Source of the DNA: Kiritimatiellia bacterium
GTDB lineage: Bacteria > Verrucomicrobiota > Kiritimatiellia > RFP12 > UBA1067
Direction of reading: 5' to 3'
Assembly (NCBI GenBank): GCA_017652705.1
Contig: JAGCAM010000079.1
Span: 11,475-75,474 of the forward strand
DNA length: 64,000 nt
The notes beneath the pieces were generated by a model. The model was given only the letters and a program-made list of their open reading frames with translations. It searched no databases and was not told the DNA's origin. A program made the translations under genes and the position numbers. This document shows positions 33,877 through 62,482 of the stretch, piece after piece; within the stretch, counting starts at the first letter, position 1, and each line of letters begins with the position of its first letter.

Positions 33877-35232
33877 TCAGCCGCGGAACCGCACCGGCGG
33901 CTCCCAGCCTTTCGCGTATTCGTCGCGGCACCACAGCTTCGCGGCAGCCCCTTTGTTCTGCAGCGCACCCGTCTTCGCGTCGAGCCGGATGGTTTCGCCG
34001 GTCGACCACGCCAAATTGGCGGTGTGCGCCATCTGCGTCGTCGCGAGCGACTTGTCCGGACCAGCGAAGCATAGTTTCGGATCCTTCGCGCGGATCGCGT
34101 CCACCCAGTTGCTGACGTGGTCGGTGTCCATGTAGCTCGCGCCGGTCGTGGACTGTATCCACTCGAACGCGCTCTGATCAAGCCACTTGCCGACGAGTTT
34201 GCTCTTGTTGTCGTACTGGAAAACCCCGTCCTGCGGGTGGAAAAGCACCGAACCGCCGGGGCCGAAGAACATGCACCCCGTGCCGATGTCGTGCGGCGCC
34301 TTCACGTTCGTCGACGAGAGGCATTCGAAAGTGATGATGCGCCCGTCGGCGAACTGGTAGCTCGCGTGCTGGGTGTCGGGCCATTCCCAGTCGTCGCCGG
34401 AGTGGAAGCACCTCGCGCCGAGCGAAACCGTCTTCACCGGGTAGTCCACGCCCATGCCCCAGCGGGCGATGTCGAGAAAGTGCGGCGAGTTGTTGCCCAT
34501 CTCGCCGGTGCCCCAGCGGCGGAACCAGTGCCAGTTGTAATGCACGTAATTGTCGTGGAAGTCCGTGCGCGGCGCCGGCCCCTGCCACATTTCCCAGTCC
34601 AGCCACTTCGGCGGGGCGACCTTCTTGCCGACGCCGATCGTCCCGCGGCGGGAGGTGTACCAGCAGCGTGCGTACTTTACATCGCCGATGAGCTCCTTGA
34701 GCCGCGGTATCATCTCGCGGTACACGCGCGAAGCGCGGCGCTGGCAGCCGATCTGCAGCACCTGGCCTGTCTTCTTCCACGTGTCGAGCAGAATCTGCCC
34801 CTCCTCGCCGTTGTAGCTGCACGGCTTCTCGACGTACACCGCCTTGCCCGCGAGCATGGCCATCCACGCCAGCGGCGCGTGCCAGTGGTCGGGCGTCTCG
34901 CAGATGATCCCGTCGATGTCTTTCATCTCGAGGATCTTGCGGATGTCCGTCGTCTGATAGGGCTTCTTGCCGGTGCGCTTCTCGACTTCCGCCACCGCCG
35001 CCGGCATCCCCTCCGGCCGCGTGTCGACGTCGCAGATCGCCGCCACTTCGACGCCGGGCGTCACCGACGCCGCGCGCATCACCCAAATGCCGCGGCACGC
35101 GCCGCGGCAGCCCATGACCGCCACCCGGACCCGGTTCGACGGAGCGCCCGCCCCGATGACGTTCTTCGCCGACGCGATGAAAAACGCGCCCGCCCCGCCT
35201 TTGATGAAGTTCCTTCTGTCCGTCTTGCTCAT
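33877..35232 (-). CDS. Tat-exported Gfo/Idh/MocA oxidoreductase, a candidate glycoside 3-dehydrogenase.
   Basis: A twin-arginine motif MSKTDRRNFIKGGAGAF is followed by a Rossmann domain. The ORF is 451 aa. Confidence 0.85.
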   Translation of the reverse strand: MSKTDRRNFIKGGAGAFFIASAKNVIGAGAPSNRVRVAVMGCRGACRGIWVMRAASVTPGVEVAAICDVDTRPEGMPAAVAEVEKRTGKKPYQTTDIRKILEMKDIDGIICETPDHWHAPLAWMAMLAGKAVYVEKPCSYNGEEGQILLDTWKKTGQVLQIGCQRRASRVYREMIPRLKELIGDVKYARCWYTSRRGTIGVGKKVAPPKWLDWEMWQGPAPRTDFHDNYVHYNWHWFRRWGTGEMGNNSPHFLDIARWGMGVDYPVKTVSLGARCFHSGDDWEWPDTQHASYQFADGRIITFECLSSTNVKAPHDIGTGCMFFGPGGSVLFHPQDGVFQYDNKSKLVGKWLDQSAFEWIQSTTGASYMDTDHVSNWVDAIRAKDPKLCFAGPDKSLATTQMAHTANLAWSTGETIRLDAKTGALQNKGAAAKLWCRDEYAKGWEPPVRFRG

Positions 35233-35287
35233 TCGATTGCCTCGTTTCCCATGTTGGTTTATGTGATTGAACGCTCCCGTCGCCGCC

Positions 35288-36685
35288 TCACGGCTTCGGC
35301 CAGTACTTGTCGGTGTATTTGGTGGGTATGCCCACTTCGCCCCGCTCGAAATTGTTCGCCAGTATACGCCAGCCGAGGTCCAGCGCGTCGATGAGGTCGA
35401 TGTTCACCGAGAGATCCATCATCTCGCGCTCGAATTCCACGCCGTACTTCAGCAGCTTTTCGTCCCATTCCGACATTTTGAAGCCCATCGACTGCTTTTC
35501 GACCGTTTCCTTGTACTGGGCGTAAAGCTTGATCATCGCGTCCATGATCGTGCGGTGGTCTTCGCGCGTGCAGTTGTTCGCGCGGAACCAATCCTTCTCT
35601 TTCGCCGAATTCTCCCCGGCTTCGGCCTGACCGAGCACCGACCGCTGCAGCGTCGAATACGACTTGCCCTTGTTTACCTGCTGCTTCAGGCGCGACAGCG
35701 AGCCGAAAGGCTCGATGCGCCCGTTTTTGAGGTAGAACTGGCCTTCCGTGATGTAGCCGGTGTTGTCCGGCACCGGGTGGGTCACGTCGTCGCCCGGCAT
35801 CGTCGTCACCGCGAGAATCGTTATCGAGCCCGCGCCTTCGAAATCCACCGCCTTCTCGTAGCGGGCGGCGAGCTGGGAATAGAGATCGCCCGGATACCCG
35901 CGGTTGGAAGGTATCTGCTCCATCGTGATCGCGATTTCCTTCAGCGCGTCGGCGAAGGACGTCATGTCGGTCAGCAGCACCAGCGCGTCTTTGCCGTCGA
36001 GCGCGAACTTCTCCGCCACCGCCAGCGATATGTCGGGCACCAGCACGCACTCCACGGTCGGATCCGCCGCGGTGTGCACGAACATCACCGTCTTCGCGAG
36101 CGCGCCCGATTTGTCGAGGGTGTCGCGGAACTTCAGGTACTCGTCGTGTTTGAGCCCCATGCCGCCGATGACGATCACGTCAGAGTCGGCCTGCAGCGCG
36201 ATGCGCGCGAGCAGCTCGTTGTAGGGCTCGCCGGCGCGCGAGAAAATCGGCAGCTTCTGCGATTTCACCAGCGAGTTGAACAGGTCGATCATCGGTATGT
36301 TCGTGCGCACCATCTCGTGCGGCATCACCCGTTTCGCCGGGTTCACCGACGGCTGGCCGATCGGCGATGGATTCTCGGTTATCTCCGGCCCGCCGTCGCG
36401 CGGCGCCCCCGAACCCGTGAACGCCCGGCCGAGCAGATCGTAGGAAAAGGGAACTTTCATCGTCTCGCCGAGAAACCGCACGCTCGCCGCGGTGTCGACA
36501 CCGCGCGCCCCCGCGAAAATCTGAATCGTCACGTTCGGCCCGTCCAGCTTGATGACCTGCGCAAGCGACGTTCCAGCCCGCGAGACCACCTCCGCTATCT
36601 CGTGGTACTTGACACCCTCCGCGCGGAGCGTCGCCACCGAACCGGCCAGATCGTCTATTTTGTGATAAACAGTGTTGTTGAACAT
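35288..36685 (-). CDS. V/A-type ATP synthase subunit B (non-catalytic nucleotide-binding subunit).
   Basis: The 465-aa ORF starts [28 protein letters not shown], the N-terminal beta-barrel domain. A central RecA-like domain without a Walker A P-loop follows. The C-terminal helical domain matches V-type B subunits. A GATATAAT box lies 6 nt upstream of the ATG. Confidence 0.75.
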
Positions 36686-39921: not shown

Positions 39922-40455
39922 TCAACGGGCCGGATTCTCGAATTCCCTGACGACGTCAAGCAGCTGCTCGGCGAGATCGGGGTCTGCCTCGAAGAGGTTG
40001 ACGTTTTCGGAATAAGTGTAACTGGAAAGGTTCGCCTTGGCGGCGATGAACCGGTCGGTGACCTCTTTGCCGGCCGACTTGCCGGTTTTTTCACGGTCGA
40101 GCAGGCCGAAATTCACGAGATTCTGGAAAATATCGTTGGCGGCTTCGGGGGTGATCTGCAGACGATGGGATTTAATGTCGCTCCAGACGTCGCTATTATA
40201 GCGCTTCGCGAAATCGTTCGAGACGAGCTCGCTGGAGCCCTTTTTAACCTCCACGAGTCCGTTGCCGTAAATCATGACGGAGACTCTGCGCGCGGGTTCG
40301 CGGCGGAGATTGTAGTAATGTACGGCCACCCAGTTGAGGGAGCTTTGAGACACCGTTATGTAGGGGTCGACCCAGAACGGGCCGCAACCCTGCGGCAGAA
40401 CGGCGGCCGAGACGGCCAAGGCCAGCAATACGGCGGTCAGCGGCGGTTGGCGCAT
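39922..40455 (-). CDS. Lipoprotein of unknown function.
   Basis: From the internal start the product reads MRQPPLTAVLLALAVSAAVLPQGCGPFW, a signal peptide plus lipobox. The upstream part of the ORF track's translation is Arg/Pro-rich and overlaps coaX. Confidence 0.4.
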   Translation of the reverse strand: MRQPPLTAVLLALAVSAAVLPQGCGPFWVDPYITVSQSSLNWVAVHYYNLRREPARRVSVMIYGNGLVEVKKGSSELVSNDFAKRYNSDVWSDIKSHRLQITPEAANDIFQNLVNFGLLDREKTGKSAGKEVTDRFIAAKANLSSYTYSENVNLFEADPDLAEQLLDVVREFENPAR

Positions 40456-41189
40456 ATCAGGCCGGCTCCGTGGAGAGTGAGGGTGGGATCGATCGTGAAC
40501 GGCAGATCGAGGTCTTTCAGCACCCAGCCGGCGAAACCTCCGGTGGCGACGAGCTTGAAGTCGCATCTGAAATTGCGGCGGAGCTGGGCCGCGATTTCAC
40601 GCACCATGCCGCGGTAGCCGACAAGGGCGCCGAAACGCATCGCGCCGGCGGTGGAACGGCCGATTTTCGGCGCCCGGCCGGCGCCGATTTTCATGCGCGG
40701 CAGTTTCGCCGCGCGTTCGAAAAGATAGTCGCGCATCAGAGGAAAGCCCGGCGCGATCACCCCGCCGCGCCAAACCCGGTCGCCGGTGACTACCGCCGCG
40801 GTAAGGGCGGTGCCGAAGTCCATCACCAGCACCGGGGCGCCGTAGCGCGAAACTGCGCCGGCGGCGTCGGCGAGACGGTCGGCGCCGATCGTAGCGGGGT
40901 TCGGGTAGTCGAGAACTATCGAAGCGCCGCCGACGCGCCTTGTGAAATCCCGGTGCGACACCGGTTTGAAGTCGAAACCTGCCCGGGCCGAAAACTCGGC
41001 CCAGGCGCGGTCCGCCGCGGGCACGACCGAGACGTAGGCGAAGCGCTCGGCTTTCGGCGCGAGGCGCGACGCGGCGGCGATCGCCGCGTCACCAGCTCCG
41101 TCGAAGTGCTTCACGCAGCTCACACGGCCGTCGGACCACAGTCCAACGGCCGTCGAGGTGTTGCCCACGTCTGCGACGAGAACCCTCAC
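40437..41189 (-). CDS. coaX: Type III pantothenate kinase (CoaX).
   Basis: The N-terminal motif is VLVADVGNTSTAVGLW. Type III PanK sequence continues throughout. The start is probably the GTG encoding V33 of the track's translation, because further upstream overlaps the DUF1080 gene. Confidence 0.85.
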   Translation of the reverse strand: MRVLVADVGNTSTAVGLWSDGRVSCVKHFDGAGDAAIAAASRLAPKAERFAYVSVVPAADRAWAEFSARAGFDFKPVSHRDFTRRVGGASIVLDYPNPATIGADRLADAAGAVSRYGAPVLVMDFGTALTAAVVTGDRVWRGGVIAPGFPLMRDYLFERAAKLPRMKIGAGRAPKIGRSTAGAMRFGALVGYRGMVREIAAQLRRNFRCDFKLVATGGFAGWVLKDLDLPFTIDPTLTLHGAGLICANRR

Positions 41190-42688
41190 AGCGCCTTGAT
41201 GAAGATGTTGCGCCACTCGGTCGGATCGCCGTGGCACTGCAGCTCGATCTGCTCGCTCGCCGGCACCGGTTTGTCCCGCTGCCACAGGTTTTCAAGCACG
41301 GTGTTGTCGACGACGAGTTCGCCGTTCAGCCAAACCGACACCTTGTCACCGCGCATGATCACGTGGAAACGATTCCAGTCGCCCACCTGCCGGTCGGCGA
41401 TTTTAAGTGCCTTCGAGAGATTGCCGGTCTTGGCCGTGTTGTTGTTGTAAAGGCCGCCGGAACCGATGTGCCACTGGTTGTGGGCGTCCCAGATCTGCAC
41501 CTGGGGCACACCGCGGAGGTAAAGCCCCGAGTCGCCGGTGATGGACATGATGCGCCAGTCGCACCACATTTCGAAATCGCCGTAATTGCGCTTGGTGGCG
41601 AGGGAATATCCGCCGCGGTAGCCGTCGAAGAAGAGGTTGCCGTTCCTGACATGCCAGTGCTCGTCGCGGCCCTTGTCGGCGATTTTCTGCATTTCGGCGT
41701 TCTTTTCGGCGGTGGCGGCCGCGCGCGTCGCGGGCTTGTCGAAACCGCCTTCGGTCGTGACGCCCTTCCACATCTTAGCGATCTGGCCGGGGCAGCCGTC
41801 GAAGTAGGTCTCGAAACCGGCGGGCGCGGCCATCTTCTGACGCGGACAGACTTCGCCCATCTTCGCGTCGTCGGGAAGCGGCTTGATGCGGATGTTCTTC
41901 CATTTCACGTTGCTGCCGTGGCCGAGCCAGCCGATGCGGCCGCGCCGGTTGTGGAGACCGGGGTGTTTGCAGTGGTCGGGAGTGTCGCCGTCGCCCTTGA
42001 ATTTCGAGAGGTCGGCCTTGGTGATCAGATAGCCGTTGAGATAAACCTCGATCTCGCTGCCGATGACCTTGACTTCCTCGAAATTCCACATGCCGGGTTT
42101 GCGCACGTAGCTGCCGCCGCCGGTGAAGTTTTTCTCCTTGCCCCAGATCTGCTTGTCGACGTTGTCGCGCAAAGACGGCACTACGCCGTAGACCGAACCG
42201 GTGTACTGGTAGGGCTTAAGCTTGTCGACCTTGTTCGAAGCGTCGTAGTAACTCGAACCGCCGTCGTCGAGCAGCTGCAGCTCGCACATCGCGTGGTACG
42301 CCGCGTCCTTGTCGGGGTCGGAGATGCGTATGCCGAGACCGTTGTTGCCGTTCGGCGGCATGGCGAACTCGAAGCGGAGTATGAAATTGCCGAACTCCTT
42401 CGCGGTGACGAGATCGCCGCGCTGACCCGGGGGCAGTTTGCGGTCGGGGAAGCACTGCAGCACCCCCGGTTCCTTCGGATCTACCCCGTACATGGCGGTG
42501 GCGCCCTGCCACCCCTCGAGGTCGTAGCCGTTGAAGAGCGACACGAAACCTTCGTTCACCGAATCGGGATAGACCCGTCCGCACTCGCAGGAAGGCGCAC
42601 ACGCGCCCTTCTCCGCGCTGTTCAAACCGCAGCAACCCGCGGTCGCCAGAACCGCGGCGCCCGCCGCGGCGATAGTTTTGATTTTCAT
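41186..42688 (-). CDS. Lipoprotein with two tandem DUF1080 domains (3-keto-disaccharide-hydrolase-like jelly-roll).
   Basis: A signal peptide with a lipobox (LATAGCCG) is present. Two repeats of the GFVSLFNGYDLEGWQG...WRNIFIK type are present. The start was chosen at MKIKTIAAAG, which gives a 4-bp overlap with nadC. Confidence 0.75.
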   Translation of the reverse strand: MKIKTIAAAGAAVLATAGCCGLNSAEKGACAPSCECGRVYPDSVNEGFVSLFNGYDLEGWQGATAMYGVDPKEPGVLQCFPDRKLPPGQRGDLVTAKEFGNFILRFEFAMPPNGNNGLGIRISDPDKDAAYHAMCELQLLDDGGSSYYDASNKVDKLKPYQYTGSVYGVVPSLRDNVDKQIWGKEKNFTGGGSYVRKPGMWNFEEVKVIGSEIEVYLNGYLITKADLSKFKGDGDTPDHCKHPGLHNRRGRIGWLGHGSNVKWKNIRIKPLPDDAKMGEVCPRQKMAAPAGFETYFDGCPGQIAKMWKGVTTEGGFDKPATRAAATAEKNAEMQKIADKGRDEHWHVRNGNLFFDGYRGGYSLATKRNYGDFEMWCDWRIMSITGDSGLYLRGVPQVQIWDAHNQWHIGSGGLYNNNTAKTGNLSKALKIADRQVGDWNRFHVIMRGDKVSVWLNGELVVDNTVLENLWQRDKPVPASEQIELQCHGDPTEWRNIFIKAL

Positions 42689-43590
42689 TTTGTCCTCCAT
42701 TCCAATGTTAAATCTATGGAACCCGCCGAGTGGGTGAGGCAGCCGAGGGATATGGCCGTCACGCCGGTCGCGGCGACTTTGCGGGCGGTCGCCAGGGTGA
42801 TGCCGCCGGACGCCTCGGTCTTAACTCTGCCGCGGCACATGGCGACGCAGCGCTTCATGTCCGCGCACGACATGTTGTCGAGCATGATCCATTCCGGCAG
42901 CGCCTTGAGGGCGCTCGCGCACTCGCGCGGCGTTTCAACCTCCACCTCCACCGCGAGCCGCGGAAACTTCTTTCTGGCGGCGGCGACGGCGAGGTCAAGC
43001 GCGTCGGGATCGCCGCCGCGCCAGAGCCGGCGGTGGTTGTCTTTGATCAGCACCCGGTCGAACATGCCGAACCGGTGGTTCGAACCTCCGCCGCACAGAA
43101 CGGCGTATTTGTCGAACATCCTGAGCCCGGGGGTGGTCTTGCGGGTGTCGAGTATGACCGTGCCGTAGTGCGCCGTGGCGTCGACGAACTTCTTCGTGAG
43201 CGTGGCCGTCGCGCACATCCGCTGCATGAAATTGAGCGCGGTCCGCTCCGCCGCGAGAATCGATCTCGCTCTGCCGCGGAAGACGAGAATCGGCTCGCCG
43301 CCGCGCACCGTTGAGCCGTCCTTTTTGAGTATCCGCACTTTCACGGCATGATCCACCGCCTTGAAAACCGCAGCGGCCACGGTCGCGCCGGCGACGACGC
43401 AGCCGGCCCCTCGCGCGTATATCTCGCCGTCGGCGAAGACGTTCTCCGGCACCAGCGCCTCCGAAGTCGCGTCAATGCGCCGCCGGGACGCCGAACCGCG
43501 GCCTCCGGGCACGAGGTCTTCGTCCAGCGCGCGCAGGACGGCCTCTTTGGCCGGCGCGGAGCGCATAACGTCCTTCATCTTCGCGGCCAT
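42685..43590 (-). CDS. nadC: Nicotinate-nucleotide pyrophosphorylase (quinolinate phosphoribosyltransferase).
   Basis: The 301-aa ORF has the QPRTase N-terminal domain and a TIM-like C-terminal domain, with motifs LDTRKTTPGLR and ILDNM. Confidence 0.9.
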   Translation of the reverse strand: MAAKMKDVMRSAPAKEAVLRALDEDLVPGGRGSASRRRIDATSEALVPENVFADGEIYARGAGCVVAGATVAAAVFKAVDHAVKVRILKKDGSTVRGGEPILVFRGRARSILAAERTALNFMQRMCATATLTKKFVDATAHYGTVILDTRKTTPGLRMFDKYAVLCGGGSNHRFGMFDRVLIKDNHRRLWRGGDPDALDLAVAAARKKFPRLAVEVEVETPRECASALKALPEWIMLDNMSCADMKRCVAMCRGRVKTEASGGITLATARKVAATGVTAISLGCLTHSAGSIDLTLEWRTK

Positions 43591-43875: not shown

Positions 43876-44868
43876 TCAGCGGAACCCCTTGTTCCGCAGG
43901 AATTGGTAGCTCGGCAGCACCGCCGAGAGGTCTTCGAAGTGGCGTTCGCACTCGACCACGTACCACTTGACCCCGTCGGCTTCTGTCGCCACGATGAGCC
44001 CGTCCCAGTCGACCGGGACTGCCCCGGGCCTGCCGGGCTGGCCGAGAATGGCGTCGAACTCTTTGACGTCCTTGCCCATGCCGTTCTCCTTAGCGTGGAT
44101 CGTGGGCGAGCGGTGCGGGTATTTGCGGAACTGCTCCTTGGGGTCGACGCCCGCGCAGGTGGACCAGCCGACATCCTGCTCCATGCAGACGTTCTGGCTG
44201 GTGTTGGAGAAGAAATAATCCCAGAACGAAGTGCCGTCGGTCATCTTGATGCCGTGTTCCCACGTGTGGTTGTGCAGGCCGATGCGGCAGCCGTACTTCG
44301 CCGCGACTTCGGCGCCCTTGTTGTAGAGTTCGACGAGACGCTTGGTGAATTCGTCGATCTCCTTCGTCGGCTGGCAGGTTTCGCCGCCCTGGCCGGTGGA
44401 CCATTTCGCGCCCGGGGGAATGTTGCCGCCGCCGGGGCAGATGATGAGGTTGTTGCCGTAGGCGAGGTTGAAATCGCACGTCGCCTTCATCACGTCGGGG
44501 TTGAACGACCATTCTGCGGTGTTGAAACCGAATTCGCCGTTGCCGACGTGGGTTCCGCAGGCGACGAGCCCGCTGTCGGCGAGCATCTTGCGCAGCGCGA
44601 TCGCGTCGTTGCCGTAGTAGCCGGCGAATTCCACGCCGGTGTAGCCGATCGCCGCGACGTCGTCGAGCGCCTTGGCGAGACCGGCGGCGGGAACAGTTTC
44701 CTTGCCGTCCTTGTCTTTTCTGCCGCCGATGTAGGCGTGGATGGAGTAGAGCTGCAGCGCGAGCCGCGCCTGAAGGGATCTGCCGCTAGAGCAGATGCAG
44801 CCCGGCAGCGCGACCGCGGCTCCGCCGGCGCCGATCGCCGACAGAAACTGTCTTCTTGATACGTTCAT
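43876..44868 (-). CDS. Tat-exported xylose-isomerase-like TIM-barrel protein (sugar phosphate isomerase/epimerase family).
   Basis: The Tat motif MNVSRRQFLSAIGAGGAA is present. The body is an AP-endonuclease-2/xylose-isomerase-like barrel (GYTGVEF, GLHNHTWEH). Confidence 0.8.
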   Translation of the reverse strand: MNVSRRQFLSAIGAGGAAVALPGCICSSGRSLQARLALQLYSIHAYIGGRKDKDGKETVPAAGLAKALDDVAAIGYTGVEFAGYYGNDAIALRKMLADSGLVACGTHVGNGEFGFNTAEWSFNPDVMKATCDFNLAYGNNLIICPGGGNIPPGAKWSTGQGGETCQPTKEIDEFTKRLVELYNKGAEVAAKYGCRIGLHNHTWEHGIKMTDGTSFWDYFFSNTSQNVCMEQDVGWSTCAGVDPKEQFRKYPHRSPTIHAKENGMGKDVKEFDAILGQPGRPGAVPVDWDGLIVATEADGVKWYVVECERHFEDLSAVLPSYQFLRNKGFR

Positions 44869-44917: not shown

Positions 44918-46315
44918 TCACCAGCCGGAGAGACGCGGCAGATTGAGCCGCCCGTTGGCCGGGGTCGATCCGTCGAACCTGCCGGCGGAGGCGTTCCAGA
45001 CAAGCTTTTTGCCCGAGTCGAAGAGCGCCGCGACGCCGAGCAGCGAACACTGCGTCATCGCGCCGGCGTACACGAAATCGCTGCCGACTTTCGGCCCGCC
45101 CGCGACAGCCCTCACGAACTCGATGTACGGCTTGTCGTCGGGTGCGTCGCCCGGTATGCGCTCGTACTTGCGCGGGGGCAGCGCGTTGTCGGCGCGCATC
45201 TTTTCAAGAGTGCGGTCCGGCAGCAGCCGCAGGAAGTTCGCCCCGTGGTGGCCGTACTCGATCACCCCCTTCGTGCCGTAGACGAACGCGCCGTTGCACA
45301 TCCAGTTGCGGCCGGCGCGGGCCTCCTTGCTGTTGTACGGCGGAAAGTACTTCATGTCGTCAAGATACTGCGAAGGCTTCGGCACGTCTTTGCACGCGAC
45401 GCCGTCGTACCATACGAGCTTGAACGGTTTGCCGTCCGGCTTCGTGTAGCAAAACGTCGTCTTCACCCCTTTGGGGAACGTGTCACCGTGAACTTCGGGC
45501 CGCCAAGAACCAACCACGTCGGCCTGCACGCTCAAAGGCAGACCGAAGCCGAACGTCCAGAAAATCGGATCCATCAGATGGCAGCTCCAGTCGCCCAGCG
45601 TGTTGCAGCCGTACATCGTCCAGCACCGCCACGTTCCCGGACAGTACTTCGGGTAGTACGGCCGGTGCGGAACCGGCCCCTGCCACTGGTTCCAGTCGAG
45701 CGTGGATGGAACCTCCCACTTCTTTTTGAGCTCGGCGAGGTCGTCCATGTACGAATACACGGCCGGGCACCAGATGTGCGCCTCGGTGACTTCCCCGATG
45801 AGCCCGGCTTCAATCCATTCGCGGAAGTCGCGGATGGTGTCGAAGGCGTGGCCCTGGTTCATCGCCTGGGTGACGAGTTTCGGATTCTCCTTCGCCGCCT
45901 TGAGCATCGACTCCATTTCACTGAAGCTCTGGCAAAGCGGCTTTTCGCACTGCACGTGCTTGCCCCGCTTCAGGCATTCGACCGCCATGGTGGCGTGCCA
46001 GTGGTCGGGCGTGCCGATCAGCACCGCGTCGATGTCGCGGTCCATTTTGTCGAGCATGGTGCGGTAGTGGGAAAAGAACGGCACGGCGGAGTGGGCCTTG
46101 CGCATCGCCTCGCTGCGCTTGAGGTCGACGTCGCAGAGCGCCACGAACTTCGCGCCGGCTTTTTCCAGCCCGCGCATGTCGTCGGCAGGTCGGCCCCCGC
46201 AGCCGATCGCCGCCATCTGCACCGTCTCATTGGCGCGGTAGGCAGTCGCACAGCCAGAAAATATCATCGGGAACCCGAACGCCGAAGCGCCCCGTATGAA
46301 TTCACGTCTGTTCAT
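44918..46315 (-). CDS. Tat-exported Gfo/Idh/MocA oxidoreductase, a candidate glycoside 3-dehydrogenase.
   Basis: The Tat motif MNRREFIRGASAFG is present. The Rossmann motif is VQMAAIGCGGRPADD. The ORF is 465 aa. Confidence 0.85.
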   Translation of the reverse strand: MNRREFIRGASAFGFPMIFSGCATAYRANETVQMAAIGCGGRPADDMRGLEKAGAKFVALCDVDLKRSEAMRKAHSAVPFFSHYRTMLDKMDRDIDAVLIGTPDHWHATMAVECLKRGKHVQCEKPLCQSFSEMESMLKAAKENPKLVTQAMNQGHAFDTIRDFREWIEAGLIGEVTEAHIWCPAVYSYMDDLAELKKKWEVPSTLDWNQWQGPVPHRPYYPKYCPGTWRCWTMYGCNTLGDWSCHLMDPIFWTFGFGLPLSVQADVVGSWRPEVHGDTFPKGVKTTFCYTKPDGKPFKLVWYDGVACKDVPKPSQYLDDMKYFPPYNSKEARAGRNWMCNGAFVYGTKGVIEYGHHGANFLRLLPDRTLEKMRADNALPPRKYERIPGDAPDDKPYIEFVRAVAGGPKVGSDFVYAGAMTQCSLLGVAALFDSGKKLVWNASAGRFDGSTPANGRLNLPRLSGW

Positions 46316-55667: not shown

Positions 55668-55740
55668 GAAGTTAATTCTACCAAAATACGCCGCCAAGGG
55701 CAATAGCACGCGCCGGACGCGGTACGTCGGCGGCTGTCAC

Positions 55741-57267
55741 TCACTTGCGGGGGACGGACTGCCCGCCGGCGCAGCTGCACGGCAGAAACCGCACGCGTAC
55801 CATCTCCGCGTCCGAAAGCCGGACGTCGTCAGGCAGCGGACCGGGCTTCTCCGCCGAAACGAAAGCGTTCGGCCGCGGCTCCTGGACGGGCACGACGATC
55901 CATTCCGACCCGTCGGCCTTCCGCTCGACGCGCCCGCCTTCCGCCGCAACGACCTGGCGGACGAGTTTTTCGCTGACGGCCTTGAGTTTGTCCCAGTCGT
56001 AGTCGGTGAATTCCCACTTTCTGCCGCGGTCGAGCTTTTCCAGAAACCCGCCCCGGATGCGGCTCGCGCCGAGCGAGGCTCCGAGCACTCCGCAGGCGGA
56101 GGCCGGGTTGCAGTCCGAATCGCATCCGCACCCGGTGGCGATCCTCGCGGTTTTCTCCATGTCGCCATCGCCCCACAGGTATCCGATCAGCACGTAAGCG
56201 CCGTTCAGCCTGACGTCGATGCCGGCAAAGGAGACGAATCTGCAGTTCTGGGGCGTGAAGTATTTGCGCGTAAGCGCCTCCCACGCAGTCCGCCAGTTCG
56301 ACGGGTCGCGCCCGTACGCCGCGAGCGTGTCGCGCACCATCTCCGCGTAGCGCGACTCCGCCGGAATGTGCCTGAGCGCCGAGCGCACGACCGAGGGGCG
56401 GTCCTGCGTGAAATACGCCTCGGCGTACATCGCCCCTACGAACTGCCCCGCGTAGAGCCCGTCGCCGTAGTTCATCACCGCGCCGAACCGGTTGCCCAGC
56501 CTGACCGCGCGGTTGGGCAGCCCCGGCGATATTATGCCGCTGAAGTCGGCCTCGATCTGATAGTCTATGTCGTACGGGGTCGGATGAAAGTTCGGGTGCC
56601 CGCAGCTGGGCGCCGCAATCCCGCGGCGCAGATTGTTCCGGGCGTTGTGGTTCGCGCACCACAGCCGGTACTTAGAATTGGCGAAGGCGATGCCGGCCTC
56701 GCGCGCGTCAACGTCGACTCCGCACCTGTCGAGCACGTCGAGAAACGTCATCTCCACGTAGAGATCGTCCTGGCAGAAGGTGCCGTTGATGATCTCGGCC
56801 TTGTATTCAGGCATGAGGTCGTCAGGCACGGGCTTGCCTACGCATTTGAATTCCGTCGGCGCGCCGTAGGCGACGCCGATGGACTGCCCGAGCCACGCGC
56901 CGGACATCCTGTCGCGGAATTGATCCATGGCGAGACTTCTCTCCGGCGCAGCCCTCTTCGCCCCTGTCTTCGGAACGGCTTTCTCTTTCGGCGCGGCGCC
57001 GACCCCTTCAATCGAATTCTTCTCCGCAACTTCGCCCTTTTCCGCACTTTTGACGGCGGCCCTCTCTTCGGGCAGATCGACTATCGTGCCGGGAAGCAGT
57101 TTCCTGCCCCCTATTACATTGCCGCCTTCTATAACCTCGACCGGCACGTCGCGCTTAAGCCGGTAGCTTCTGATCTTTCGGACGTCGTTTTGCTTCTCCT
57201 GCCCGAATGCCGCAAAAATCGCCAGCGCCATCGCGCAGACGGCCGTCATCGCTACGTGTTTCTTCAT
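55741..57267 (-). CDS. Secreted ADP-ribosylglycohydrolase (ARH/DraG) fold protein.
   Basis: A signal peptide is present (MKKHVAMTAVCAMALAIFAAFG). A linker of about 100 aa follows. The ARH-type core has the motif GAWLGQSIGVAYGAPTEF. A C-terminal extension is present. Confidence 0.65.
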   Translation of the reverse strand: MKKHVAMTAVCAMALAIFAAFGQEKQNDVRKIRSYRLKRDVPVEVIEGGNVIGGRKLLPGTIVDLPEERAAVKSAEKGEVAEKNSIEGVGAAPKEKAVPKTGAKRAAPERSLAMDQFRDRMSGAWLGQSIGVAYGAPTEFKCVGKPVPDDLMPEYKAEIINGTFCQDDLYVEMTFLDVLDRCGVDVDAREAGIAFANSKYRLWCANHNARNNLRRGIAAPSCGHPNFHPTPYDIDYQIEADFSGIISPGLPNRAVRLGNRFGAVMNYGDGLYAGQFVGAMYAEAYFTQDRPSVVRSALRHIPAESRYAEMVRDTLAAYGRDPSNWRTAWEALTRKYFTPQNCRFVSFAGIDVRLNGAYVLIGYLWGDGDMEKTARIATGCGCDSDCNPASACGVLGASLGASRIRGGFLEKLDRGRKWEFTDYDWDKLKAVSEKLVRQVVAAEGGRVERKADGSEWIVVPVQEPRPNAFVSAEKPGPLPDDVRLSDAEMVRVRFLPCSCAGGQSVPRK

Positions 57268-58557: not shown

Positions 58558-59799
58558 TCAGCCGAGCCTGTCCACCGTCATAACGGGCAGATTCTTTCCG
58601 GAAGGCTCTTTCATCGGCTTCATGCCGGAGGGGTCGAATGCGTAGCCGTTCGAGCCGAGCGGCCAGACGGCCGGGGCGGTGTTGAGCACGGTTGCGCGAA
58701 AGCCCTGCATCGTCGCGCCGAGATTGCCGGTGTGGGAGCTGTTACAACCCTCGTTCTCGATCACGAACGGATTGCTGTATCCTTTCACCATGAGCGTCTC
58801 GAGGAACTTCGTCCAGTCGCAGGAATCGCTGCCGCCGAAACCGGGCAGGCGCGGCTCGTAATTGAGACGGTCCCACTCGTTGGCGGGCAGCGGCACACCG
58901 GCCTTCTTCGCGAGGACGGGGTCGACGCTCTGCATGGGGAACAGGCGTCCCCAGTGTACGGCTTCGGTTTCTCCGGGGAAGTTCCTCGTGCCCTTGATGT
59001 GGACGCGGCGCAGCTTTTTGAAATCCATCGCCTCGATAACCGCCGAAGGGTCGATGTGCTGCCAGATGTCGTGCGACGGATCGTACGTCTCTTGCAGCGC
59101 TGAGTCGTCGTCAAGCACGGCGTACATCAGTTTGCGCGCAGCGAGACACCCCGGCAGGTTGCAGTAGCAGTCGGTCGAAGACAGCGGCCGCCACCCCTCC
59201 ATCGGGCAGTTTTCGACGCAGAGCGTGACTCCGAGGTCCTTGGCGTATTTGAGAATCGGGGTGAAGACCTTTTTGAACTTCATGAGGTTCTTCTCGAAGC
59301 CGTTCTCCTCGTTGGAGAGGGCGACGTCGTACCCGACGAACGTTCCGCAGACGACGTCGTTCGCGTCGCCGCCGAGCAGCGCGGCGATGCGGACGAGTTT
59401 GAGGATGTGGTTCTGGTTGACGATCTGGAGTTCGGGTTTGCCGCCGATAAGGTTGTCGTAGGCGCCGACCGACATGCGCACGCCTTCGCGGTTGCAGATG
59501 TCGATCACCCGTCTGGCGTCGTCGATCGAGAAATTCTCGTAGTCGAGATGCGTGGCGACGTGATCCTGGCGGTCGGTGTCGCGGCGGAACACGCAGAGCT
59601 CGAGGCCCTGGGCTCCGACGCTTTTGGCGCGGGCGACGACGGTTTCGAAATTGCGGTCGGCGGCGAGCGCGCTCGACATCAGCCAGATCTGGTTGTTGCG
59701 CGGTTTCGGCTTCGCCTGCCGGGCTAACGCCGAACCGGGGGTGAACGCACCCGCCGCGGCTAGCGCGGCGGCGCTTTTGAAGAAGTCCCTCCTGTTCAT
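58558..59799 (-). CDS. Tat-exported xylose-isomerase-like TIM-barrel protein (sugar phosphate isomerase/epimerase family).
   Basis: The start was chosen at MNRRDFFKSAAALAAAGAFTPG, a Tat motif. The barrel region contains GAQGLELC and CVENCP. Confidence 0.75.
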   Translation of the reverse strand: MNRRDFFKSAAALAAAGAFTPGSALARQAKPKPRNNQIWLMSSALAADRNFETVVARAKSVGAQGLELCVFRRDTDRQDHVATHLDYENFSIDDARRVIDICNREGVRMSVGAYDNLIGGKPELQIVNQNHILKLVRIAALLGGDANDVVCGTFVGYDVALSNEENGFEKNLMKFKKVFTPILKYAKDLGVTLCVENCPMEGWRPLSSTDCYCNLPGCLAARKLMYAVLDDDSALQETYDPSHDIWQHIDPSAVIEAMDFKKLRRVHIKGTRNFPGETEAVHWGRLFPMQSVDPVLAKKAGVPLPANEWDRLNYEPRLPGFGGSDSCDWTKFLETLMVKGYSNPFVIENEGCNSSHTGNLGATMQGFRATVLNTAPAVWPLGSNGYAFDPSGMKPMKEPSGKNLPVMTVDRLG

Positions 59800-59813
59800 G
59801 ACCGGCCCTTCCG

Positions 59814-61373
59814 TCAGACCACGATCTTCCAGTTGTCGCGGTAGCACGGGCGCTTCAGCCAGTCCGGATCGCCGGTGCCGTTGGCGAAGGTCATGTTCGG
59901 CCCGTCCCAGTCGAAACCGGTGTCGTAGATGTAGCTCAAGTTGCAGAGCTGGCAGAGAATCGCGCCGCGGGCGCCTATTTCAGCTGTGGAGACGGTGGGC
60001 TTGCGCGTTTCGATGCACTCGCAGAAATTGGCCACCTGGTTGGTACTCTTGTAGAGCTGCACCGGGGCGCCGGCGAGATTGAACTTCTCGATCAGGGTCT
60101 GCACCGCTCTGCCGAGGCGGTCGTCTTTCTTGACCATCGAATCGGTGCCGTAATCTTTGCCGACGGATGCGGCGACGATCTTGTCCTTCATGAACTCGCA
60201 CGTCTCGATCTGCTTGCGGATCTCGAGGTCGGGCTTGACGAGGCCGGTGCCCTTCCAGACGGCGACCTTGCCGCGGTTGACGGCGACGATGCCGTCGGTT
60301 CCGTAGAAGACCGTTCCCCACACGCCGAAAGGCCCGTGGTAGAGCTCGATGTCGCCGCTCTTGCCCTTGAAAAGCATCTTCATGCCGTACTGGCGGCGGC
60401 CGCCGTGGTAGAGGTCGGTCGAGTAGGGCTCGTCGGAGCGGATGATCTTGTATGGGCCGGACTTGTCCATGTCCATGCCCCACTGGGCGATGTCGAGGTG
60501 GTGAGCGCCCCAGTCGCCGCAGTAGCCTGTGCCGATGTCGTCGTCGAAGCGCCAGAACATCGGGTAGAACTTGTTCACGCCCTTCGGCGCGAGAAGGTTG
60601 GAGTAGGGACGCCATTTGGCGGGGCCGAGCCAGCGGTTCCAGCCCCATTCGCCGAGTTCGGCGTAGCCATCGCTCTCGGCCGCGGCGTTCCGGGGGTCGT
60701 CGAAGAACCTGAGGGGATGCGACGGGCCGCCGAGTTTCTTGCCGCCGATGCCGTAGTTGGCGTCGACGTACTTAAGCTCGCCGATGCCGCCGTTGCGGAC
60801 GATCATGCACGCGGCGCGGAATTCGCTGACCTTGGCCCAGCTGCGCTGCATCGAGCCGGTCTGGAACACCCGGCCGTACTTCTTCTGGGCCGCGATCACC
60901 TGTTTCGCCTCCTCGGGCGAGAAGGTGAGGGGCTTTTCGCAGTACACGTCTTTGCCGTGCTTCATCGCCTCGACGCACATGTAGGCGTGCCAGTGGTCGG
61001 GGGTGGCGATGCACACCGCGTCGATCGACGGGTCTTTGATGATTTCGAGGAAGTCCAGCACGACGCGGCAGCCTGAGTCGCCGTAGAGCCGGTTGACTAT
61101 TTCAGCCGCCGCCTTGGCGCGGGTCCCGTCGCAGTCGCAGACGGCTGCGATTTTCACCGTGTCGCGCAGGTGTTTGGTGAGTTCCGAATCGCCGGCGAAC
61201 TGCGGGATGAGCGCACTGCGCATCTGGATGCCGCAGCCGATCATGCCGATCTGGCGTTTTTCGCCGGGCTTGAGCGGATGCAGGCCGATTTTGCCGTCCG
61301 CGCGGCCGGCGAGGGCCGCCGCCGCGGCGGATCCGAAGATGAAGTTTCTGCGGTCGAGTTTCATGTTGTGCAT
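59814..61373 (-). CDS. Tat-exported Gfo/Idh/MocA oxidoreductase, a candidate glycoside 3-dehydrogenase.
   Basis: The Tat motif MKLDRRNFIFGSAAAAALAG is present. The Rossmann motif is IGMIGCGIQMRS. The ORF is 519 aa. Confidence 0.85.
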   Translation of the reverse strand: MHNMKLDRRNFIFGSAAAAALAGRADGKIGLHPLKPGEKRQIGMIGCGIQMRSALIPQFAGDSELTKHLRDTVKIAAVCDCDGTRAKAAAEIVNRLYGDSGCRVVLDFLEIIKDPSIDAVCIATPDHWHAYMCVEAMKHGKDVYCEKPLTFSPEEAKQVIAAQKKYGRVFQTGSMQRSWAKVSEFRAACMIVRNGGIGELKYVDANYGIGGKKLGGPSHPLRFFDDPRNAAAESDGYAELGEWGWNRWLGPAKWRPYSNLLAPKGVNKFYPMFWRFDDDIGTGYCGDWGAHHLDIAQWGMDMDKSGPYKIIRSDEPYSTDLYHGGRRQYGMKMLFKGKSGDIELYHGPFGVWGTVFYGTDGIVAVNRGKVAVWKGTGLVKPDLEIRKQIETCEFMKDKIVAASVGKDYGTDSMVKKDDRLGRAVQTLIEKFNLAGAPVQLYKSTNQVANFCECIETRKPTVSTAEIGARGAILCQLCNLSYIYDTGFDWDGPNMTFANGTGDPDWLKRPCYRDNWKIVV

Positions 61374-61432
61374 TTCCTTTTCAGTGTTTTCAATCGTGTT
61401 GTTTCATCCGTTGACGGTTGAGCCGCCGGCGG

Positions 61433-62482
61433 TCAGATCGCCGGACGGAGAATCATGTTTTTGAAGTCGGCGTCGGAGTGGTCGCCCTGCAGGTAGATGG
61501 GGCCTTTCGCGTCGACATCGGCGTCGATGGCGCCGCCGGTCACGCCGGTGACCTCGGCGTTTTCGATGATGGTGACGCCGTTGAGGACGACGGTCAGACG
61601 GCGCTTGTAGATCGTGACGCTCACGTGCTGCCATTCGCCGGGCGCCTTTTCGGCGGCGGTGATCGGCGTGACGCGGCCGTAGTAGGCGGCCATGTTGTGG
61701 CGGTTGACCGGCTTCTTGTAGCTGTCGATCACCTGGCACTCGAAACGCCCGCGCAGATAAACGCCGGAGTTCGACCCCTCTGGCACGCGCACGTCGTATT
61801 CAAGGTTGAAGTCGCCGAAGTCGTCGCGCCTGGTGACGAGATTCACCCCGCCGCCCTTCCACTTGCCGTCGGGCTTGCGGCCGAGCGCGTTGGAGAGGAC
61901 GCCGTCCTTGAACTTCCAGCCGAAGACGCCGCCCTTGCTCATCGCCTTCCAGCCGTCGAGACCGTCCTTGAGCAGATCGACGGGTTCTCCGAACTTCGCG
62001 TTCTTCACGTTGGCGAGCTGGCAGACCGGTGCGATGCGCCAGCCGGAGAACGGCTTGTAATCGCCGTTCGCCTTGCCGTCCTTGTCGCAGGGGGCGATCT
62101 CGCCCTCGAGTTTGCAGCCTTTGACCTTGCCGCGCATCAACACGCCGTACGGGTGGCGGAACGAGAAGGAGTCCCCCTCGACCTTCACGTCAAGGCACCA
62201 CTCCGGAGAGCCCCAGCGGTAGAGGACGAAAGCTTTCGGCTCGCCTTCTTCGGTACGGGAGAAAATGAGGCTCGAAGCGTACATCGAATCGTACGGCAGC
62301 TTCGCGCCCCAGTTGCCTATCACGGGGTCGATCGACGTCTGGTCGCAGATTTTCGGCGCGCACGGCGTGCAGGGCCGGCCGGGCCGGCAGCAGGTCTCTC
62401 CGGCGGTCTGGCATTCGGCGAAGGCCGCCGCGGCGGACACAGCCGCGACTGATGCGAGGATGGCGGATTTTTTCATTTTCAT
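61433..62482 (-). CDS. Secreted DUF1080 (3-keto-disaccharide-hydrolase-like) protein with a Cys-rich N-terminal extension.
   Basis: A signal peptide is present. The first roughly 60 mature residues contain 9 Cys (ECQTAGETCCRPGRPCTPCAPKICDQ). The C-terminal roughly 200 aa, LDGWKAMSKGG...YLQGDHSDADFKNMILRP, form a DUF1080 jelly-roll. Confidence 0.7.
   Translation of the reverse strand: MKMKKSAILASVAAVSAAAAFAECQTAGETCCRPGRPCTPCAPKICDQTSIDPVIGNWGAKLPYDSMYASSLIFSRTEEGEPKAFVLYRWGSPEWCLDVKVEGDSFSFRHPYGVLMRGKVKGCKLEGEIAPCDKDGKANGDYKPFSGWRIAPVCQLANVKNAKFGEPVDLLKDGLDGWKAMSKGGVFGWKFKDGVLSNALGRKPDGKWKGGGVNLVTRRDDFGDFNLEYDVRVPEGSNSGVYLRGRFECQVIDSYKKPVNRHNMAAYYGRVTPITAAEKAPGEWQHVSVTIYKRRLTVVLNGVTIIENAEVTGVTGGAIDADVDAKGPIYLQGDHSDADFKNMILRPAI

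Follow-up and report, generated by a model that had tools for sequence, protein, structure and literature searches.

A window of 64,000 nucleotides (the whole stretch of DNA analysed here), taken from the MAG of an uncultured Kiritimatiellae bacterium of the (ruminant) gut, probably specifies periplasmic glycoside cleavage by a non-Koshland system like those described in Alistipes and Bacteroides (AL/BT), in Agrobacterium and for levoglucosan. The most likely role of its exported dehydrogenase, TIM-barrel and DUF1080 genes is sugar removal by an oxidise-then-eliminate route, a known pathway of which this would be a further example. The genes are laid out as one contiguous triad, one pair of a Gfo/Idh/MocA (Gfo) gene with a TIM-barrel gene beside a DUF1080 gene linked to nadC and coaX, and one orphan dehydrogenase gene, G1. 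A preliminary description had counted three separate, complete gene sets; that count does not hold, since one set is a triad, another a Gfo-TIM pair and the third a lone dehydrogenase, and the two TIM barrels belong to different subfamilies.

Pfam searches and RR motifs bear out the families that had been named in the window. Seven ORFs, all on the minus strand and of coding-type composition (GC3 0.81-0.88), encode three Gfo/Idh/MocA oxidoreductases with the GFO_IDH_MocA and C2 domains (G1, 33877..35232, 451 aa; G2, 44918..46315, 465 aa, possibly a lipoprotein; G3, 59814..61364, 516 aa, matching PF01408 with 77 bits and PF19051), two xylose-isomerase-like TIM barrels that match AP_endonuc_2 and TAT_signal (T2, 43876..44868, 330 aa, possibly a lipoprotein; T3, 58558..59799, 413 aa), and two DUF1080 proteins that match PF06439 (D2, 41186..42688; D3, 61433..62482). 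All seven proteins carry export signals, like AL1-AL3: Tat signals on the Gfo and TIM-barrel proteins (G1 DRRNFIKG, G2 NRREFIRG, G3 DRRNFIFG, T2 SRRQFLS, T3 NRRDFFK), a Sec lipoprotein-type signal on D2 and a Sec signal on D3. The ORFs lie where the preliminary description placed them, except that the true start of T3 is MNRRDFF, making its first-listed span (58558-59847) too long, and that G3, first listed as 59814-61373, was corrected to a span identical to a 516-aa public gene call.

Adjacency of the three families, claimed for each of the oxidoreductases, was found only in part. It holds for D3-G3-T3, the only contiguous triad, where an M18 aminopeptidase gene (62479..63837, minus strand; Peptidase_M18, 271 bits), which is probably context and outside the pathway, overlaps the start of D3 by 4 nt and a promoter-like site is present at 63873-63845. 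G2 and T2 form a pair, split from D2 by the housekeeping gene nadC (quinolinate phosphoribosyltransferase; 42685..43590, minus strand; QRPTase_C/N). D2 is itself translationally coupled to nadC on its upstream side and, downstream, to coaX (type III pantothenate kinase; 40437..41189, minus strand; Pan_kinase, 136 bits), with 4-nt overlaps at both D2 ends (ATGA and GTGA) and the GTG start of coaX overlapping the D2 stop codon; a promoter-like site at 43843-43814 lies between T2 and nadC, upstream of nadC. In the Pfam search the D2 and coaX ORFs were taken as 41186-42700 and 40437-41285. The functional link to NadC that had been suggested is speculation; the nadC-D2-coaX order is kept in only ~5 of 35 D2 loci. 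G1 has no adjoining DUF1080 or TIM-barrel gene, the nearest, D2, being 6 kb and six genes away. It is flanked by a V-ATPase B gene and by G0 (30401..33721, minus strand), a Gfo-DUF4838 fusion with a Sec signal (PF01408, 36 bits; DUF4838, 90 bits) whose Gfo-type Rossmann domain is N-terminal (residues 39-167). G0 is a fourth exported Gfo-domain protein, absent from the preliminary description; DUF4838 is a GH163/GH185-type catalytic domain (PMC10570127). G0 heads a GH3/GH2/GH127/DUF4838 cluster, and G1 is the first gene of this classical glycosidase run.

All three dehydrogenases score higher for glycoside 3-dehydrogenases than for inositol dehydrogenases. Their top NCBIfam family is BT_2158_fam, with 110, 221 and 83 bits for G1, G2 and G3 against 53, 54 and 71 bits for iolG, and their top PDB match is AL3 or DgpA; none of these scores reaches the BT_2158_fam equivalog cut-off of 750 bits, the best being that of G2. 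The NCBIfam levoglucosan dehydrogenase model gives just 32-63 bits in the window. By sequence, G2 is the nearest relative in the window of the glucoside 3-dehydrogenase AL3/BT_2158, a strong link to the AL/BT route: its BT_2158_fam match spans nearly its full length, AL3 (8tdf/8tdh) scores 158 bits against at most 50 for every other solved Gfo enzyme, and identity to AL3 is ~40% across 265 residues. G2 keeps the NAD-adjacent Gln (NQG, equivalent to Gln161) and GDWSCH, with equivalents of the catalytic Asp248 and His252; the sugar-binding Arg192 and Trp195 of AL3 are not conserved in the alignment with G2. For G1 and G3 the link is weaker. G1 matches AL3 best (67 bits), followed by DgpA1 (52) and GH109 (28), and carries Asn at the position of the catalytic Asp248 (GNNSPH). 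G3 separates the families poorly, as its BT_2158_fam and iolG scores indicate; AL3 (52 bits) is its second solved sequence match, and ranks first by Foldseek from a low-confidence model (pLDDT 66). With conserved residues EKP143-145, Q168, D284 and H288, G3 represents a second Gfo type, and is a candidate 3-keto-sugar reductase or glycoside 3-dehydrogenase of a second specificity.

GH109 NAD+-dependent alpha-N-acetylgalactosaminidases, found in mucin-degrading gut bacteria, are also Tat-type exported Gfo-fold proteins of ~450 aa, and combine C3 oxidation with elimination. It is conceivable, but unlikely, that the Tat-Gfo proteins, or at least some of them and G1 and G2 in particular, act by themselves as NAD+-dependent glycosidases of the GH109/GH4 type, or else serve as accessory oxidoreductases of neighbouring giant or GH-like proteins, in which case neither TIM-barrel nor DUF1080 partners would be needed. 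The place of G1 at the head of a classical GH cluster, beside the Gfo-DUF4838 fusion, would fit such a role. So would the context of G2: a giant secreted or GH2-like protein always precedes G2 and its orthologs, and in three relatives the G2 ortholog has no TIM or DUF1080 neighbour. GH109 structures are detectable (6t2b, E 5e-6, for G1; 2ixa, 1e-4, for G3), but this similarity is weak (24-28 bits), and AL3 and DgpA score far above it. GH109 enzymes perform all steps in one active site and require no TIM-barrel or DUF1080 partner. AL3 alone only oxidises and a lyase is required; T2-like and T3-like genes were never found without an adjoining Gfo gene.

T2 and T3 are TIM barrels of different subfamilies with different metal sites, one of the AL1-like lyase type and the other of the AtHYD-like hydratase type. 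The best PDB matches of T2 are AL1/BT1 (8tcd/8tcs/8tct), with AtOGE (8bvk) also found (E 1e-4), and every one of the six AL1 residues in the alignment that bind metal or substrate (His103, His178, His180, Asp211, Trp214 and His237) is kept, as H107, H199, H201, D232, W235 and H258. T2 is of the AL1/BT1 3-keto-glycoside 1,2-lyase type, a second strong link to the AL/BT route on the evidence of its residues. The metal site of T3 is E196-D240-H267-E348, and its structural model is closest to the Agrobacterium tumefaciens 2-hydroxy-3-keto-glucal hydratase AtHYD (17% identity), with epimerases ranking lower, making T3 a candidate 2-hydroxy-3-keto-glycal hydratase. We consider it quite improbable that the Gfo-TIM pairs instead cleave no glycosidic bond and act as YcjQRS-like epimerases or isomerases by way of a 3-keto intermediate, or in a catabolism of the inositol type (IolG with IolE/IolI). 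In NCBIfam, T2 matches iolE alone (47 bits), and for G1-G3 iolG ranks second among the families; these scores, however, are far under the cut-offs set for the iol families (355 and 290 bits), no other iol genes were found near, and the Gfo and TIM proteins alike carry Tat signals, unlike the cytoplasmic enzymes of inositol catabolism. The retained AL1 site in T2 and the rank of AtHYD above epimerases for T3 argue in the same direction.

The DUF1080 proteins are less firmly tied to the other two families. D2 contains two tandem domains (225 bits over two stretches), as had been described, and D3 has one C-terminal domain (114 bits; residues ~175-345) after a Cys-rich N-terminal half, with ExQ at 248-250 and QGDH at 332-336. 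DUF1080 matches in the PDB include BT2-type 8tda (30 bits) for D2 and 4qhz for D3; in these searches BT2/AL2 came no closer to either protein than did structures of uncharacterised DUF1080 proteins. A Gfo gene lies within 600 nt of D3 orthologs in 8 of 41 loci (P ~2e-5) and is adjacent to D2 orthologs in 2 of 17, with neither Gfo nor TIM neighbours in the other 33 and 15 loci.

Gene order in relatives ties the TIM barrels much more closely to the dehydrogenases: T2-like and T3-like genes adjoin a Tat-Gfo gene in 23 of 23 cases, including all T2-ortholog loci seen. TIM and DUF1080 neighbours are missing from two G3-ortholog contexts. In this lineage the gene order is fluid, with the housekeeping genes nadC, coaX, M18 and tsaE interleaved. 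Such fluidity, and the many DUF1080 orthologs that stand alone, would be expected if the window held a meaningless chance juxtaposition of paralogs from large families expanded in many PVC genomes. We regard this as very improbable, given the constant TIM-Gfo adjacency, the D3-Gfo association and the low background: in flanking sequence from relatives, 855 kb in all, Gfo genes occur at ~7 per Mb and T2-like or T3-like genes not at all. At that density, four genes for exported Gfo-domain proteins within 31 kb are unexpected (Poisson P ~8e-5, rising to 0.02 should the true background be five times higher).

It is also unlikely that the window holds three independent complete copies of dehydrogenase, TIM lyase and DUF1080 protein, redundant or differently specialised. 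All three families do occur several times in 30 kb, and the contiguous D3-G3-T3 has a similar counterpart, M18-D3-Gx-T2-like, in seven genomes; the M18 gene holds the same position upstream of Gfo-TIM modules in L012, L014, L018, L022, L023, L027, L030 and L033. Against this, G1 lacks partners, D2 belongs with nadC and coaX in a unit that has a promoter-like site of its own, and T2 and T3 differ in metal site and in closest characterised relative (lyase versus hydratase). In addition, T2-like and T3-like genes share single clusters in relatives (Gx-T2-like-G3-like-T3-like in L014, Gx-T3-like-T2-like-G3-like in L009, Gx-T3-like-T2-like in L010), all of whose members have RR signals and in which Gx scores 259 bits against BT_2158_fam. 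Their presence in one four-gene cluster suggests complementary steps, not redundancy. Since the TIM genes are always Gfo-adjacent and sometimes form one Gfo-TIM-Gfo-TIM cluster, with only occasional DUF1080 adjacency, G2-T2 and D3-G3-T3 look complementary (one for the lyase step, the other for the hydratase step), or at least like different modules, and not like redundant copies.

The analysis establishes the families, the export signals, the catalytic residues kept in G2 and T2, the T3 fold and the constant placing of TIM genes beside Gfo genes; from these we infer the catalytic steps, their assignment to proteins and the substrates. In the proposed oxidise-then-eliminate route, a Gfo/Idh/MocA dehydrogenase that is exported by Tat and carries bound NAD, for which G2 is the best candidate, would first oxidise the sugar at C3; G1 may likewise oxidise products of the neighbouring glycosidases. 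T2 would then split off the aglycone, or the leaving sugar, by elimination across C1-C2. In a fourth step, a Gfo enzyme (G3, or the same dehydrogenase) would reduce the 3-keto sugar and restore NAD+, such that the net reaction is a redox-neutral hydrolysis, fitting an anaerobe.

The closest precedent is the AL1-AL4/BT2156-BT2159 cluster of Alistipes and Bacteroides thetaiotaomicron, which encodes an oxidise-eliminate-hydrate-reduce route, with redox recycling by 3-keto-glucose reduction proposed for AL3 (bioRxiv 10.1101/2024.03.25.586180; Liu et al., 2021, PMC8121099). The match to a characterised periplasmic route made in the preliminary description stands at the level of families: a TIM lyase (AL1/BT2156), a DUF1080 protein (AL2/BT2157) and a Tat-Gfo protein (AL3/BT2158). 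The compartment logic is also the same, with an NAD-bound Gfo 3-dehydrogenase exported by the Tat route (counterpart G2), an exported TIM-barrel 1,2-lyase whose His/His/Asp/Trp/His site is kept in T2, and exported DUF1080 proteins, and the host is likewise an anaerobic gut bacterium. The window differs in its phylum (Kiritimatiellota), in scoring far under the NCBI equivalog cut-off, and in having one more type of Tat-exported Gfo protein (G3) and one more type of TIM barrel (T3), both absent from the AL/BT cluster. Its DUF1080 genes are loosely linked, one being tandem-domain and inside a nadC-coaX unit, and Pfam and NCBIfam searches of the window found no cytoplasmic BT2159/AL4-type Gfo reductase, transporter or regulator (SusR/DUF6377) near these genes.

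Other systems provide precedents for individual features. DgpA/DgpB/DgpC, which deglycosylate C-glycosides in gut bacteria, combine a Gfo 3-oxidoreductase with a TIM-barrel C-C lyase, and DgpA is the best solved sequence relative of G3 (72 bits). The 3-keto-glucoside operon of A. tumefaciens (GlycDH, the eliminase AtOGE (8BVK), the hydratase AtHYD (8RO4) and a Gfo reductase) is a case in which an eliminase and a hydratase were characterised together, although its dehydrogenase is an FAD enzyme and not a Gfo protein (PMC10628242). The Bacillus smithii levoglucosan pathway is encoded by LgdA/LgdB1/LgdB2/LgdC (PMC7676230). Its enzymes differ in acting on an anhydrosugar. To our knowledge, no Tat or Sec signals are known on them. 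Nonetheless, a single Lgd cluster holds a Gfo dehydrogenase, a Gfo reductase and two "sugar phosphate isomerase" TIM barrels that are dissimilar, one an eliminase and the other a Mn-dependent hydratase, a content that resembles both the Gfo-TIM-Gfo-TIM clusters of L014 and L009 and the two Gfo-TIM pairs of the window.

Nearly all real genes of the window, which has a G+C content of 63%, lie on the minus strand, as do all those described here up to G0. Read in the direction of transcription, from right to left, the first is an M18 aminopeptidase gene (62479-63837), which overlaps by 4 nt the start of D3 (61433-62482), encoding a DUF1080 protein. G3 (59814-61364), a Tat-signal Gfo/Idh/MocA oxidoreductase, and T3 (58558-59799), a Tat-signal xylose-isomerase-like TIM barrel, follow contiguously after gaps of 68 and 14 nt, the operon layout of the Alistipes (AL1-AL5) and Bacteroides (BT1-BT4, BT2156-BT2160) clusters for oxidative glycoside cleavage. 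After T3 come a gap and a small ORF, and then a 508-aa ADP-ribosylglycohydrolase-family protein (55741-57267), predicted to be exported because it carries a Sec signal peptide, which sits between the G3-T3 module and two giant proteins. Both giants are exported and lie immediately upstream of G2; the first (51420-55709; 1429 aa) has no Pfam match and the second (46361-51379; 1672 aa) a weak CBM9 match. G2 (44918-46315) is a second Tat-signal Gfo, and is followed by T2 (43876-44868), a second Tat-signal TIM barrel, by nadC (42685-43590), by D2 (41186-42688), a DUF1080 protein with two such domains, and by coaX (40437-41189). An unassigned ORF, an AMP-binding enzyme, a 2-hydroxyacid dehydrogenase and TsaE are next, in that order, and between tsaE and the third Tat-signal Gfo, G1 (33877-35232), lies a gene for V-ATPase subunit B (35288-36685; NCBIfam, 703 bits) that stands alone, with neither an A subunit nor another V-ATPase gene adjoining. 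G0 (30401-33721), a Gfo-DUF4838 fusion, follows G1 and is itself followed by GH2-N, GH3, DUF4838 and GH127-DUF4838-GH2 fusion genes. An ENA copy of this locus derives from sample XIEF21-1, taken to be a ruminant gut metagenome.

The preliminary description presented these genes as three copies of one set, with each Tat-signal Gfo gene adjacent to DUF1080 and TIM barrel genes. Its family assignments are right, with Pfam scores exceeding the gathering thresholds, but the adjacency holds fully only for D3-G3-T3. For G2-T2 it holds in part, since D2 lies past nadC and a promoter-like site, and G1 has neither a DUF1080 nor a TIM barrel neighbour, so that the layout of the AL/BT clusters is seen in part for G2-T2 and is absent around G1. 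The promoter-like site has an extended -10 element and is placed in the 285 nt that separate T2 from nadC. D2 is coupled to its own neighbours by 4-nt overlaps, ATGA between the nadC stop and the D2 start and GTGA between the D2 stop and the GTG start of coaX, so that calling it adjacent to G2-T2 is too simple. The coupling joins an exported DUF1080 protein translationally to two cofactor-biosynthesis genes, and the order nadC-D2-coaX (40437-43590, minus strand) recurs in five loci from relatives (L091, L100, L118, L120 and L123). We set aside the earlier suggestion of a functional link through the NAD cofactor that NadC helps to make, because most D2 loci lack this order and both nadC and coaX have housekeeping roles.

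Twin-arginine motifs are present in G1 (RRNFIK), G2 (RREFIR) and G3 (RRNFIF), giving all three the signal expected of an AL3/BT3-type periplasmic dehydrogenase, and likewise in T2 and T3; among G1-G3, the Pfam TAT_signal model matches G3 alone. D2, D3 and G0 have Sec-type signals, and a Cys after the hydrophobic core suggests that G2, T2 and D2 are lipoproteins. An exact-sequence look-up of G3 with a 519-aa start returned no match; the public gene call uses a 516-aa start.

For each of the three dehydrogenases the first-ranked NCBIfam family is NF058561, the BT_2158 glycoside 3-dehydrogenase family, with 221 bits for G2, 110 for G1 and 83 for G3, all below the curated cut-off of 750 bits for equivalog membership. 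The iolG scores are 53 (G1), 54 (G2) and 71 bits (G3), with an equivalog cut-off of 355. A grouping with inositol dehydrogenases, which the preliminary description would have counted against a glycoside 3-dehydrogenase assignment, was not observed, since NCBIfam ranks the BT_2158 family above iolG for G1-G3; the separation is strong for G2 only. Among solved Gfo enzymes, G2 matches AL3 (8tdf/8tdh) with 158 bits and all others with at most 50. AL3 is also the best PDB match of G1 (67 bits), and G3 best matches DgpA, the Gfo of a C-glycoside system (72 bits), followed by AL3 (52 bits). The identities of 8TDF, 8TDH, 8TCD and 8TDA (8tdf being AL3, and 8tcd the AL1 lyase) were read from fold-search descriptions, and little weight is given to the fold-search ranking of G3, whose AF2 model has low confidence (pLDDT 66). 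Of the AL3 residues on the catalytic/NAD side (Gln161, Asp248 and His252), Gln161 and His252 have equivalents in all three proteins, and Asp248 is Asp in G2 and G3 and Asn in G1; G2 retains the Gln of the NQG motif and the Asp and His of GDxxxH. The sugar-binding residues Arg192 and Trp195 align in G2 with Ala and Tyr, in a gapped region of the alignment, and Tyr349 falls beyond it. Less probably, G1 and G2 are instead self-sufficient, GH109-like glycosidases, a reading compatible with their genomic contexts; the GH109 structures 2ixa and 6t2b score only 24-28 bits, too little to place the proteins in GH109 and far below AL3 and DgpA.

The closest solved relatives of T2 are AL1 and BT1 (8tcd, 8tcs and 8tct). 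T2 residues H199, D232 and H258 correspond to the AL1 metal ligands His178, Asp211 and His237, and H107, H201 and W235 to the substrate residues His103, His180 and Trp214, so that all six named residues are identical in T2; T3 does not have this set. The HMMER alignment stops short of the catalytic Glu of AL1 (Glu272/275, above substrate C2), for which E306 and E308, on a VVECE strand, are the T2 candidates. T3 has a canonical E196-D240-H267-E348 metal site, and a sequence search of the PDB with T3 returned no match. Its family is narrow and strongly conserved, with 257 representatives at E <= 1e-3 among 1.84 billion, 14 of them at E <= 1e-30, and more than 120 clusters 76-85% identical to T3. 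The TIM barrel call for T3 in the preliminary description stands, but its start does not: the true start, MNRRDFF, is at 59799, 14 nt past the G3 stop. Since the T2-type and T3-type barrels probably carry out different steps, the Gfo, TIM barrel and DUF1080 genes cannot be counted as interchangeable units; both this difference and the gene anatomy contradict the idea of three redundant sets. Tat export, the low iol scores (iolE gives 47 bits for T2, short of the equivalog cut-off of 290) and the active site of T2 speak against inositol-type catabolism or YcjQRS-type epimerisation; G1-G3 and T2 are exported, and the window has no other iol genes.

The DUF1080 model search proposed earlier (PF06439; gathering cut-off 26.8 bits) placed both proteins well within the family, with 225 bits for D2 over two domains and 114 for D3. 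Against BT2 (8tda), D2 scores only 30 bits, and neither D2 nor D3 is closer to BT2 than to DUF1080 structures that are uncharacterised; 8tda is the ninth-ranked PDB match of D2. We compared them with the BT2 active site (Glu103, Asn134, Glu164, Gln166, Tyr190, Lys245, Gln273 and His275) by motifs; at that level, D2 domain 1 and D3 both have ExQ, and D2 domain 2 has QxH, where D2 domain 1 reads LGH and D3 reads QGDH. Residues 1-170 of D3 (61973-62482, minus strand) are Cys-rich past the signal peptide and have no Pfam match; this N-terminal half is kept in orthologs (coverage 2-349 in several loci).

G0 is a fourth exported Gfo-domain protein in the window. It has a Sec rather than a Tat signal, a Gfo Rossmann domain at residues 39-167 and a DUF4838 domain at residues 500-824, an unusual pairing of a Sec-exported NAD-type domain with a glycosidase-like one; GH163 and GH185 (6-sulfo-GlcNAcase) have DUF4838 as their catalytic domain (PMC10570127). 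Classical glycosidase genes are densely packed directly downstream of G1-G0 (19131-30397, minus strand); among them are a GH3, a DUF4838 protein of 918 aa and a 1749-aa triple fusion of GH127, DUF4838 and GH2. Two short ORFs with only GH2 fragments (24411-24929 and 29768-30397) may be remnants or split genes. A cytoplasmic Gfo of the BT2159/AL4 type was not found in the window (BT_2159_fam scores of at most 24 bits), nor did the ORFs scanned from 30 to 64 kb include a BT2160/AL5-like regulator domain. The sole signal-less Gfo (2395-3351; 318 aa), without a BT_2159_fam match, is inside a nucleotide-sugar cluster (2395-7941, minus strand). Rubrerythrin is its direct neighbour, and genes for a GT2 glycosyltransferase, an NAD-dependent epimerase/dehydratase and a UDP-glucose dehydrogenase-family protein are nearby; this Gfo probably serves the synthesis of surface glycans as a nucleotide-sugar 3-dehydrogenase and has no connection with the exported Gfo proteins.

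We fetched the contexts of G3, T3 and G2 orthologs, of 75 D3 orthologs from species-representative genomes and of 69 D2 orthologs from metagenomes; nearly all of these loci are from animal guts and carry a Kiritimatiellae, Lentisphaerae or Verrucomicrobia label. An iterative HMM census of 158 loci was rejected for drift (M18 ORFs entered the TIM barrel model and DUF4838 the Gfo model) and was redone by single-round phmmer with defined seeds. All 23 T2-like or T3-like genes abut a Tat-Gfo gene, one of them via another TIM barrel gene that does so, and 14 of the 23 are in loci picked without Gfo selection. Both TIM barrel types and two Gfo types often share one cluster, as in M18-Gx-T2like-G3like-T3like (L014), Gx-T3like-T2like-G3like (L009), Gx-T3like-T2like (L010) and T2like-G3like-G2like (L007), where Gx is a further, BT_2158-like Gfo type (259 bits) and all cluster members have RR signals. 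Solitary Gfo genes, with neither TIM barrel nor DUF1080 genes, are found in two G3-ortholog contexts and in all three G2-ortholog contexts (L159, L160 and L161); the G2 orthologs are always downstream of giant or GH2-like secreted proteins, which suggests a conserved partnership distinct from that with TIM barrels and DUF1080 proteins. DUF1080 genes are only loosely linked to Gfo and TIM barrel genes: 8 of the 41 usable D3-ortholog loci have a Gfo gene no more than 600 nt away (seven being M18-D3-Gx-T2like), as do 2 of 17 D2-ortholog loci. The M18 gene is directly upstream of Gfo-TIM modules in eight loci (L012, L014, L018, L022, L023, L027, L030 and L033), whichever Gfo and TIM barrel paralogs come next, with or without a DUF1080 gene. 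None of the fetched loci has close relatives of the giant proteins, G0 or G1.

Away from the focal genes, 855 kb contained 6 Gfo and no T2-like or T3-like genes; this density, about 7 Gfo genes per Mb, rules out a huge, Planctomycetes-like family expansion in which clustering would be trivial. Four exported Gfo genes in 31 kb (P about 8e-5) and the 8/41 adjacency (P about 2e-5) argue against pure chance co-location, which we disfavour, with P values that depend on the sensitivity of single-round phmmer for the background and would weaken were it several-fold higher.

The most economical reading is periplasmic oxidative glycoside cleavage by at least two module types. We consider it reasonably probable that the system works like the AL/BT route; our assignments of steps to individual proteins are more tentative. 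G2-T2 would be a dehydrogenase and lyase module homologous to AL3 and AL1, and G3-T3, with D3 in this genome, a hydratase of the type of AtHYD (8RO4; the Agrobacterium tumefaciens 2-hydroxy-3-keto-glucal hydratase) with a second Gfo. G3 might recycle bound NADH by reducing the 3-keto sugar, as has been suggested for AL3 (bioRxiv 10.1101/2024.03.25.586180), or oxidise a second substrate class. G1 may be an additional AL3-like dehydrogenase within a cluster of classical glycosidases with many DUF4838, GH3, GH2 and GH127 domains, a hint that the wider context is one of host-type, possibly sulfated, glycan substrates. A bolder version, which we regard as improbable, is a four-enzyme periplasmic relay in gut Kiritimatiellae. 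An AL3-like dehydrogenase would act first, then an AL1-like lyase and an AtHYD-like Tat-exported TIM barrel hydratase; a second Tat-Gfo would come last, reducing the 3-keto sugar with recycling of the bound NADH. Such a relay would be a Bacteroides and Agrobacterium/levoglucosan hybrid with DUF1080 as an optional part. It would also be tied to giant secreted proteins of a glycan-binding or GH-like kind and, in G0, even be fused to a domain of the GH163/GH185 type, which would enable it to attack complex, possibly sulfated, host glycans instead of small glycosides.

Kiritimatiellota is a little-studied PVC phylum, common in ruminant and human guts, and we know of no cultured gut members. The oxidise-eliminate route has been characterised to date in Bacteroidota, Agrobacterium and some Gram-positives; if our assignment is right, this broad-specificity route reaches Kiritimatiellota, and CAZy-style counts underestimate the glycan-degrading capacity of the phylum. 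G2/T2 and G3/T3 are small, soluble targets for testing glycosides, with 60-85% identical orthologs in dozens of MAGs.

In the Alistipes and Bacteroides clusters, AL1/BT1 is an exported TIM barrel with 3-keto-beta-glucoside 1,2-lyase activity, AL2/BT2 a DUF1080 lipoprotein acting as glycal hydratase and alpha-lyase, AL3/BT3 a Gfo 3-dehydrogenase that is exported by Tat and binds NAD tightly, and AL4/BT4 a cytosolic Gfo that is dispensable in vitro (bioRxiv 10.1101/2024.03.25.586180). The pathway and all three families are known already, and homologous clusters have previously been reported as widespread; what is new is limited to the occurrence in Kiritimatiellota and to a mixed Bacteroides/Agrobacterium/levoglucosan architecture with DUF1080 optional. 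The Tat-Gfo and the AL1-type lyase are shared with the Bacteroides system, and the separate TIM barrel hydratase and second Gfo, as candidate roles, with the Agrobacterium and levoglucosan systems.
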